From: a virus
Lineage: Monodnaviria; Loebvirae; Hofneiviricota; Faserviricetes; Tubulavirales; Inoviridae
IMG/VR virus record: IMGVR_UViG_2565956711_000002
Location: 1 to 7,551 of that record
DNA: 7,551 nucleotides
Strand: one strand, 5' to 3'
Part shown: one piece after another, positions 3,832 to 6,058 of the stretch
How the letters are laid out: every line of letters begins with the position of its first letter
How positions within the stretch are numbered: position 1 is the first letter of the stretch
Notes under the pieces: generated by a model
Databases searched by the model: none
Seen by the model: the letters and a program-made list of their open reading frames with translations, nothing else
What the model was told of the DNA's origin: nothing
Translations under genes and position numbers: made by a program

Positions 3832-4122
3832 TCATTCTAATAATTCAAGCAGCATATCAACGTTATACCCTTTAGACTGCTCACCTGTTTGCTTATCAGT
3901 GTATGGGAAACTCCGTTCATAACCAGTAATGCGGCAATGTACATCGGTAATTTCATCACCAATACGGCCTAGTGATTTCTTTGATTTAATACGAATGACA
4001 GGCGGAAAGCTATAAGCATCAGCCGCAGGAGAAACAATTGTTGTATAATAAAAACCGCCACTATTATTAAAACGTTTAATCTTTCCGGTAACAGTAGTTT
4101 CTAAATTAAGTAAATTACTCAT
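3832..4122 (-). CDS. ssDNA-binding protein, SSB/PriB-like OB-fold (functional analog of gV)
   Basis: 96 aa, immediately downstream of rep (16-nt gap) with an AAGGTG Shine-Dalgarno. Motif pattern recalls bacterial SSB: VTGKIKRF..NSGGFYYTTI against SSB LVGNLGQ..NGGAVANITLAT, and ITGYERSFPYTDKQTGEQ against SSB IEGQLRTRKWTDQSGQ. Assignment is by position plus this motif resemblance. Confidence 0.6.
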   Translation of the reverse strand: MSNLLNLETTVTGKIKRFNNSGGFYYTTIVSPAADAYSFPPVIRIKSKKSLGRIGDEITDVHCRITGYERSFPYTDKQTGEQSKGYNVDMLLELLE

Positions 4123-4138
4123 AATAACACCTTATATT

Positions 4139-5254
4139 CTATGCAACTCGTAAATGAGACGGTTTTACATACCACGATGGAATAACACAATCAGACACTT
4201 TAATCTCTCGCGTTTGCTTGACAACAACAGGAGAGAATTTCGAAACATTACATTTTTGCGCAATGTCAATACCAATCTTGCGGAGTCTTGCCCGATGAAT
4301 ACGCACTTGATTTTTACTTAAATCAAAAATATGACCATGAAACCATTGGATCGCGTACATAGCTGTAGTATTAGCTGCCCGTGTAGTTTCAACTATTCCA
4401 CGGGTAATAAGATGTTCACTAATAGTTTCAAAATCCATAGCATTCACCGATAACTTTTCATCAAGCGCCAGAAAATCAGAATGTAACTTATTTAACACAG
4501 AATAATCAGATAACCCCCAAAAACCTAGAGAGTGTTTTTGAATAAAACGAGACTTCAATTTTTGTTCAAATCTGACTATTCCATTTTCCTTACAATAATC
4601 AATCACACTAACAATATAATTAAACTCTTTTGACTGCTCAGAGAATTTATTTTTTATTTTTAATAAACTATGTAACTCAATCTCATGTGACTTATTATAT
4701 ACAGTCGGATAAATAAGATTAACATTCCCTTTTTTAGACAACCAGTCAACAGATTTACCGTTTGAATGCAACCGTGGTACACTATTCCTATAGGGTTGAG
4801 TCGAAAGCCCTGAAATATAATCATCCTCATTCCCTTTGCCAACAGATTTATTAGATGTTATGTGAAGCTCTTTAATTAACGCCCCATCACTGACCATATG
4901 AGCTTTTTCGGTTTCTTTAGACTGACCGGGCATTAAACGAGTGCATTTTGTAAAAAAAGGCAATTTAAGATCAAGAAGGATCTTATTGAAAACCATAACG
5001 CAAGCATCAACGGTAGGTAAGCCAAATAAATTATCAAGCCGCCCCCACCGCGAAGGGTTGCCCGTCATTTTTAGAACAGATCCACGGATAGAAATAGAAA
5101 CGACATCACAGAAAGATCCCCGGTGCTGAAAAGTTGGCTGAGAAAGCGCACTAACCTCACCACTTTCAAGATGAATACGCTGGTAAGCAACATCCGAGAG
5201 AATAGGAAGTTGAAAGCCGAAATCCTGTTCAATACTTAACCAGTCGAAGAACAT
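4139..5254 (-). CDS. Rolling-circle replication initiation protein, filamentous-phage gII (CRI) family
   Basis: 371 aa. Segment GIVRFEQKLKSRFIQKHSLGF resembles Ff pII GLVRFEARIKTRYLKSFGLP. First gene of the minus-strand operon, with a strong promoter-like element upstream. Gene is visibly AT-rich. Confidence 0.85.
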   Translation of the reverse strand: MFFDWLSIEQDFGFQLPILSDVAYQRIHLESGEVSALSQPTFQHRGSFCDVVSISIRGSVLKMTGNPSRWGRLDNLFGLPTVDACVMVFNKILLDLKLPFFTKCTRLMPGQSKETEKAHMVSDGALIKELHITSNKSVGKGNEDDYISGLSTQPYRNSVPRLHSNGKSVDWLSKKGNVNLIYPTVYNKSHEIELHSLLKIKNKFSEQSKEFNYIVSVIDYCKENGIVRFEQKLKSRFIQKHSLGFWGLSDYSVLNKLHSDFLALDEKLSVNAMDFETISEHLITRGIVETTRAANTTAMYAIQWFHGHIFDLSKNQVRIHRARLRKIGIDIAQKCNVSKFSPVVVKQTREIKVSDCVIPSWYVKPSHLRVA

Positions 5255-5581: not shown

Positions 5582-5636
5582 ATACGGGAAACCGTACTAA
5601 AGTTCGGGTGTCACAGAACCCCGAACCGCTTCGCGG
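5582..5636. other. Cluster of three short GC-rich stem-loops between the two small ORFs
   Basis: TACGG-GAAA-CCGTA (5583-5596); GTTCGGG-11 nt-CCCGAAC (5602-5626); CCGC-TTC-GCGG (5626-5636). No U-run follows on either strand, so this is not a classic intrinsic terminator. Confidence 0.3.
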
Positions 5637-5758
5637 CGAAAAAACGAACAACAGCAGAGCTTGCGAAATCGGAATTAAGATAAGCTGGACGTCAAACGAT
5701 TAAACAAAAATACGCCATTATGCAAAGATCAAATGACACACTCTAAAAGGTATAGGTA

Positions 5759-6025: not shown

Positions 6026-6031
6026 CGCCCT

Positions 6032-6058
6032 AATGCGCATAATGACGTTATGCTAAAG
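6032..6058 (+). other. dif-like XerC/XerD recombination site (prophage att junction)
   Basis: AATGCGCATAA-TGACG-TTATGCTAAAG compared with E. coli dif GGTGCGCATAA-TGTATA-TTATGTTAAAT (recalled): each arm matches at 9 of 11 positions, with a divergent, apparently 5-nt, central region. Located next to hipA, where chromosomal dif lies in E. coli K-12 (recalled). Confidence 0.7.

Follow-up and report, generated by a model that had tools for sequence, protein, structure and literature searches.

A probable gene X-like internal start in the If1-like rep gene of a filamentous prophage of Escherichia coli

Gene X of the filamentous phages is a classic nested in-frame gene, annotated only in the Ff phages, IKe, I2-2 and their close kin. 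In the Ff phages (M13, f1 and fd), it lies in frame within gene II. The Ff pX protein inhibits pII-mediated initiation at the plus-strand origin (PMC11962056), and modulation of replication by pX is known for this group of phages (PMC11962056; PMC7697814). In IKe and I2-2, gene X is likewise annotated as an in-frame internal start in gene II. According to work by Fulford and Model in the 1980s, Ff pX is reportedly also required for normal single-strand accumulation. A comparable arrangement occurs in phage phiX174, where an internal in-frame start in gene A, which encodes a rolling-circle initiator, gives rise to A*, a fragment from the C-terminal end that has regulatory or inhibitory functions. 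The phiX174 A protein, however, is an HUH endonuclease from a protein superfamily unrelated to the Rep protein described here, and phiX174 belongs to a different virus family.

The DNA analysed here (hereafter, the window) is a stretch of 7,551 nt, IMG/VR record IMGVR_UViG_2565956711_000002, and comprises the right-hand part of a filamentous (Inoviridae) prophage of E. coli beside hipA (Table 1). The phage genes on the minus strand are rep, a gene V-like gene that starts 17 nt past the rep stop, a small ORF and a coat-like gene, followed in our list by a long gene III-like ORF, a DUF2523/gene VI-like ORF and a Zot/gene I-like gene. Of complete genomes, that of E. coli G5 (NZ_CP060065) is closest, at 99.1% identity; its PGAP annotation labels rep simply 'phage/plasmid replication domain-containing protein' and lists no nested gene. 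The closest characterised phage is Escherichia phage If1 (Infulavirus), whose Rep is 81.6% identical at the protein level; If1 is a free I-pilus phage, whereas the element in the window is a prophage. The UPphi prophages (PMC7307601) were considered as the identity of this element and rejected, since their kinship is with IKe and I2-2 (Lineavirus-like), in contrast to the If1-like Rep found here.

Table 1. Coordinates of rep, the proposed internal start and neighbouring features in the window
Feature	Position	Strand	Basis or remark
rep, 371 aa, rolling-circle replication initiator, filamentous-phage G2P (gene II) family	4139..5254	-	Pfam, NCBIfam, PHROG
Proposed gene X-like in-frame ORF	4139..4438	-	99 codons + TAG; Rep residues 273-371
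Internal start codon ATG (Met273)	4436..4438	-	codon 273 of the 371-aa Rep
Shine-Dalgarno (SD) motif GGTGA	4444..4448	-	5 nt before the ATG; spacer 4443-4439
Codons 269-272 (S-V-N-A), SD motif and spacer, predicted flexible interdomain linker	4439..4450	-	
G2P_X_C domain (Rep residues 282-366), main folded part of the putative short product	4157..4411	-	Pfam PF05155
Gene V-like ssDNA-binding protein gene	3832..4122	-	PHROG 8473, 5.4e-42
Small ORF, 62 aa	5378-5566	+	PHROG 5219, phage family of unknown function
Small ORF, 88 aa	5759-6025	+	PHROG 37184, phage family of unknown function
hipA	6229-7551		adjoins prophage

Rep belongs to the same families as Ff pII. It matches Pfam PF05144 (Phage_CRI, the G2P N-terminal domain; 22.1 bits against a cut-off of 21.7), PF05155 (G2P_X_C, C-terminal; 86.6 bits, cut-off 25, 1.7e-24) and NCBIfam TIGR01629 (rep_II_X, 'phage/plasmid replication protein, II/X family'; 33.8 bits, cut-off 29), as well as the replication protein family PHROG 702 (1.5e-104). 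A PDB sequence search with Rep gave no match at E <= 1. The AlphaFold model of the protein (pLDDT 85.8) found its best PDB matches in the staphylococcal RepDE rolling-circle initiators 4cwe and 4cwc (E 1.7e-4). Only two segments of this model fall below pLDDT 50, namely residues 269-272 and residues 343-346 in the C-terminal tail. The former is the sole such segment between domains and is flanked by a helix at 252-267 and another at 275-284. Since this linker splits the two helices, Met273 is predicted to open the C-terminal domain, and it stands 9 residues ahead of the Pfam G2P_X_C domain.

The C-terminal portion by itself is readily recognized as this domain. The 99-aa product alone scores 90.2 bits against PF05155 (cut-off 25; 1.3e-25), with its residues 10-94 aligned to positions 1-86 of the 88 in the profile, and its residues 6-93 match PHROG 17464, a profile of 100 positions. 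When modelled alone, the domain consists of three helices (residues 3-12, 19-32 and 42-62) and an extended tail, with a pLDDT of 73. A Foldseek search with this isolated model returned a best E value of 1.7 (the KorB DNA-binding domain), which is not significant; with no significant structural analogue, no biochemical activity can be assigned to the domain.

The sequence-only reading of the window had proposed that an in-frame ATG at 4436-4438, preceded by GGTGA at a suitable distance, directs synthesis of a protein of about 99 aa co-linear with the Rep C-terminus. Both elements were found as described, with a 5-nt spacer between them, and the frame is exactly 99 codons long (MDFETISEHL...HLRVA) and ends at the rep stop codon, TAG at 4141-4139. 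The minus strand around this site reads tcGGTGAatgctATGgattttgaa, or tta tcG GTG Aat gct ATG gat ttt gaa in codons, such that the GGTGA is composed of the third base of codon 269, the whole of codon 270 (GTG) and the first base of codon 271. The calculated energy of the duplex between GGTGA and the 3' tail of the 16S rRNA is -7.6 kcal/mol. This is the best value among the seven in-frame ATGs of rep, the start codon of rep itself having -4.4. In-frame positions of rep reach -7.6 or better in 4.4% of cases, which for six internal ATGs gives a probability of ~0.24 that one or more would score this well in a single sequence. Thus, the pairing of ATG and SD is not significant alone, and any significance has to come from comparative data. 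Two GTG codons nearby were evaluated as alternative starts and rejected: GTG270 (4447-4445) has no usable SD (-2.4), and the -12.3 calculated for GTG253 (4498-4496) is due to a run of GGGGG that, at 15-20 nt upstream, is too distant. A sigma-70 scan for a gene X-specific promoter gave 5 sites against 5.1 expected, none of them just upstream of 4438.

Conservation of the start codon was assessed in proteins and in DNA. Met273 is shared by all 120 of the best protein homologues (60-88% identity) and by all of 71 distinct DNA loci, which collapse to 35 lineages with less than 85% nucleotide identity between them and 45-100% protein identity. Among the seven Met positions of Rep, only 273 (35/35 lineages) and 299 (33/35) are conserved. 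The first DNA sample was partly seeded on MDF[ED]TIS, a peptide that includes the Met, and is thereby biased for Met conservation; for this reason, a second DNA sample was gathered with seeds from N-terminal motifs. Met299 (4358-4360, minus strand) lies in the C-terminal domain without an SD (mean, +1.0 kcal/mol) and is probably a structural Met, not a start. D274, I278 and L282, neighbours of Met273, are also highly conserved, so that conservation of this Met could by itself be structural. The most serious rival explanation takes up this point. It holds that Met273, located two residues before helix 275-284 and amid conserved residues, has no more than a structural role, at the N-terminal edge of the C-terminal domain, and that the GGTG before it is kept for a reason other than initiation, either as an SD-like pause that aids co-translational folding or as a cis-acting DNA or RNA motif. 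The mRNA also carries no start-site signature in its accessibility, as would suit this explanation: the mean over the 35 lineages near the internal start is average (rank 174/361), a result that is in itself neither for nor against an internal start.

The nucleotides upstream of Met273 are more informative than the residue itself. Residue 269 varies between lineages (Ser TCG, Met ATG, Gln CAG, Lys AAG) and yet its codon ends in G in 29 of the 34 informative lineages against 9.7 expected (Poisson-binomial P ~2e-15), and Val270 is encoded by GTG in 27 of 35 against 6.4 expected (P ~4e-15), where the expected counts come from each gene's own codon usage and the P values assume independent lineages, which these are not. 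A better control, though an informal one, is provided by comparison with other Val columns within the gene: in five other conserved columns, GTG was used by just 1-5 of ~35 lineages. The constraint is local, covering ~5 nt, in that the third positions of codons 267, 268, 271 and 272 are free to vary. Across lineages, the resulting motif reads GGTGA or AGGTGA and keeps a constant distance to the ATG. The mean SD energy at the Met273 column is -6.9 kcal/mol for the 35 lineages, which ranks fourth among 364 columns (z = -3.0), and the corresponding mean at the start codons of rep is -3.8. These patterns indicate that codons 269 and 270 are under synonymous selection that preserves the SD motif.

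An antisense ORF on the plus strand (4331-4453) was examined as a possible cause of this constraint and rejected, as stop codons break it up in most lineages and only two codons are constrained. Both the narrowness of the constraint and the lack of conservation of the antisense ORF argue against a purely structural Met, as does the placement of the motif at fixed spacing from the only fully conserved start codon within rep. In favour of that rival, SD-like sequences are not rare in rep, and columns 143-144 even average slightly better than the Met273 column. The strongest conserved SD-like stretch of the gene, at 4820-4840 on the minus strand (codons ~139-144; mean, -7.3 kcal/mol), is the G-rich coding region of GKGNE, ggcaaagggaatgaggatg; among in-frame start codons, no conserved one follows it.

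The second DNA sample, with its seeds in the N-terminal domain, comprised 41 distinct contexts. A start codon was present at the profile position of Met273 in 31 of these, and 29 of the 31 had an SD of -7 kcal/mol or better; the other 10 contexts had no start at that position. Examples include GGAGGTGtccaacATG, at -14.1, and AGGAGttgctaccGTG, which was found in two lineages. Separately, the Pseudomonas phages WX_Y and 36-2 were seen to have AAGGTGActgctATG and GAGGTGAtggcgATG, respectively. The residues encoded around the site differ across this sample; L-E-V-S-N-M, for instance, is written as GAGGTGtccaatATG. Two lineages have GTG in place of ATG, with AGGAG before it; the long protein then has a Val, yet the codon can still serve as a start. 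In addition, one Vibrio clade without a start at the Met273 position has GGAGAAGGctATG eight codons upstream, i.e. a new ATG with its own SD. The exchange of Met for another start codon and its re-creation elsewhere both count against the structural explanation. At the protein level, 1.84 billion representatives clustered at 50% identity were searched with a profile; 21 of 36 full-length matches had Met at position 273, and in the distant ones a Met is often located upstream, by 3, 5 or 8 residues. Taken together, the second DNA sample and the distant proteins indicate that the signal is general in this Rep lineage, is not universal in the wider family, and is apparently able to move.

Database proteins of ~100 aa that begin at Met273 were considered as stand-alone X genes and rejected as evidence. 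The one that was inspected, P0160 (L093), is a fragment call on an apparently chimeric contig of 1 kb, in which a CRISPR-repeat-like sequence precedes the rep fragment. The NCBI entry WP_227657289.1, which has the exact 99-aa sequence, was likewise set aside; it clusters with rep fragments of many lengths, among them one of 146 aa from a contig equal in length to its own, and so looks like a call on a broken rep and not like an annotated gene X.

The gene X-type interpretation is further supported by the location of the annotated X starts. When eight diverse G2P proteins are aligned with MAFFT, the pX starts of M13, IKe and I2-2 all fall in column 348 and Met273 in column 351, a coincidence with three reference phages that counts against a purely structural Met. 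Weighing the mobile start and this shared position against the points in its favour, we regard the structural explanation as improbable, although it is the strongest of the rivals. A functional internal start at codon 273 of rep is, in our judgement, likely. The sequence-only reading would have been contradicted by a lack of any initiation signal at this ATG and of conservation of the Met and its upstream purine stretch among related rep genes; the opposite was found, and the Ff gene X-type reading gains support from the conserved start and SD and from the families and domain boundary shared with Ff pII and pX.

The resemblance to the known X genes extends to domain layout and signal strength. 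The G2P_X_C profile begins at residue 10 in the product described here, residue 20 in M13 pX, residues 20-21 in IKe pX and residue 7 in I2-2 pX. With 111 aa, M13 pX is longer than the 99-aa product here, and its start precedes the domain by 19 residues as compared with 9; IKe gene X encodes 121 aa. The I2-2 gene X (98 aa, 6 residues before the domain) is almost equal in size and layout to the 99-aa product. Both Ff pX and the product proposed here represent the C-terminal quarter to third of the respective initiator. In M13, IKe and I2-2, as in the window, the SD of the nested gene is stronger than that of the full-length gene, with -11.3 versus -6.4 in M13 and -7.6 versus -4.4 here. The gene order, II/X followed by gene V, is also the same here, in M13 (Ff), in IKe and in I2-2. 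There are differences as well. Ff pX has been demonstrated and genetically characterised, whereas the product described here is predicted from sequence. Similarity between M13 pX and this product is marginal (~29% identity over 55 residues, E 0.022), and M13, IKe and I2-2 are absent from the tblastn matches at E <= 1e-3. The Rep proteins of IKe and I2-2 belong to sub-lineages other than that of the Rep found here, and in BLASTP, I2-2 pII resembles it only over short local stretches. The host elements also differ, in that the prophage described here lies next to a dif-like site and the Ff phages are purely episomal and do not integrate.

From the conservation of the start codon and its SD we infer that translation initiates at codon 273, and the analogy with Ff pX suggests a role for the product in replication. 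In the proposed mechanism, rep would have two starts: the 5' ATG (5254) would yield the 371-aa initiator, and the ATG at 4438 would yield a 99-aa protein consisting of the C-terminal domain, with the internal SD GGTGA written into codons of the flexible interdomain linker. As the internal SD is stronger than that at the start of rep, synthesis of the short protein would exceed that of Rep. If it acts as Ff pX does, the free C-terminal domain may antagonise or modulate full-length Rep at the plus-strand origin, and the origin DNA, Rep itself or a host factor are its possible targets. The outcome would be limited amplification of the replicative form and a shift in favour of single-strand accumulation, jointly with the downstream gene V-like protein.

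A second rival accepts the internal start as real and proposes that its product does not act like Ff pX, being instead, for instance, a trans-dominant inhibitor of incoming related phages, by which the prophage would exclude superinfection, or a partner required by Rep for origin binding. Chromosomal integration of the element next to a dif-like site, unlike the non-integrating Ff phages, would be compatible with such a departure, as would the weak similarity to M13 pX and the failure of the structural search to supply an analogue that fixes a biochemical activity. The domain family and the order of genes (II/X, then V) are nevertheless those of Ff, and we consider this proposal very unlikely as a separate account; it is a variant of the best explanation and not a contradiction of it. 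The chance pairing of an in-frame ATG with a purine-rich pentamer of no function, which the single-sequence probability given above would allow, is the least credible reading of all and is effectively refuted by the invariant ATG and the synonymously preserved SD across 35 lineages and by recovery of the same pattern in the independently seeded sample.

A broader reading combines several of these elements, and we hold it to be improbable. It views the internal start as ancient, mobile and family-wide, and as kept by selection on linker codons. Val270 would then be invariant mainly since GTG completes the SD, and where a start is lost, GTG would take its place or a new one would arise a few codons upstream. 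The product would perhaps be a superinfection inhibitor as well: in dif-integrating prophages, an excess of the C-terminal domain might confer superinfection immunity at the level of replication besides acting as a replication governor.

Returning to the gene X-type interpretation, the If1-like Rep lineage very probably encodes gene X too, as judged from its sequences. If1 Rep carries the identical tcggtgaatgctATG context (locus L024). In the region concerned, the If1 record annotates 'ORF320; homologous to R-pyocin' and a 'minor intergenic region', and contains no full-length rep/gene II or gene X. The deposited If1 sequence (NC_001954, L002, 7316-8432) has a frameshift near rep codon 50, with the first 50 residues in another frame, and we attribute the missing gene II and gene X annotation to this frameshift. 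Literature searches for gene X in If1 or the If1-like Rep lineage found nothing. The internal start described here is an expected, previously unannotated case of the gene II/X arrangement and not a new mechanism or system, and it leaves the understanding of filamentous phage replication unchanged.

Recognition of the nested gene may still be of practical use. The If1-like Rep lineage is widespread, in prophages and viral contigs, among Enterobacteriaceae, Pasteurellaceae, Aeromonas, Shewanella, Pseudomonas and Alteromonas. The annotations of If1 and of many prophages miss a likely regulatory protein, and their correction would be useful. Compound phenotypes are to be expected from knock-outs or truncations of rep. 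In addition, the locus offers a clear case in which amino-acid conservation in a disordered linker would be explained by an embedded ribosome-binding site.

Several other features of the element were recorded. The two small ORFs on the plus strand are divergent from rep, and the 62-aa ORF occupies the position of a repressor or regulator in related phages. In E. coli G5 (L001, 1-585 and 7139-8254), the prophage is tandemly repeated, with two copies of rep and of the two divergent small ORFs, and an ISKpn21 insertion separates the end of the phage from hipA. In the window, a dif-like sequence, ATGCGCATAATGacgtTATGcTAAAg, is located at ~6031-6058 (plus strand), past the last phage ORF and before hipA; the canonical E. 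coli dif is absent within 3 mismatches. The dif-like site suggests XerCD-type integration at or near dif and would mark the end of the prophage.

A 44-bp element at 5598-5641 (plus strand), with the hairpin GTTCGGG...CCCGAAC, is 95.6% identical to part of the 'major intergenic region' of If1. Its 25-nt core, GTTCGGGTGTCACAGAACCCCGAAC, recurs without change in 19 other loci that were fetched, at ~350-1300 nt upstream of rep; If1 is among them, as is Alteromonas phage phiAFP1, whose Rep is only ~50% identical. The alignment of the window to the prophage-free E. coli records H16/H17 likewise begins at 5598, in two pieces. For this Rep lineage, the 44-bp element could serve as a replication origin or nick hairpin, or as a packaging signal.

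The 1-kb Logan contig DRR513859_90101 (L093) starts with a CRISPR-repeat-like 29-mer, GTGTTCCCCACGGGCGTGGGGATGAACCG, within positions 1-60. This repeat resembles those of type I-E and runs straight into a related rep gene, and the contig looks like an assembly chimera formed through a rep-matching spacer. If such a spacer is real, a host CRISPR array would target this phage group.
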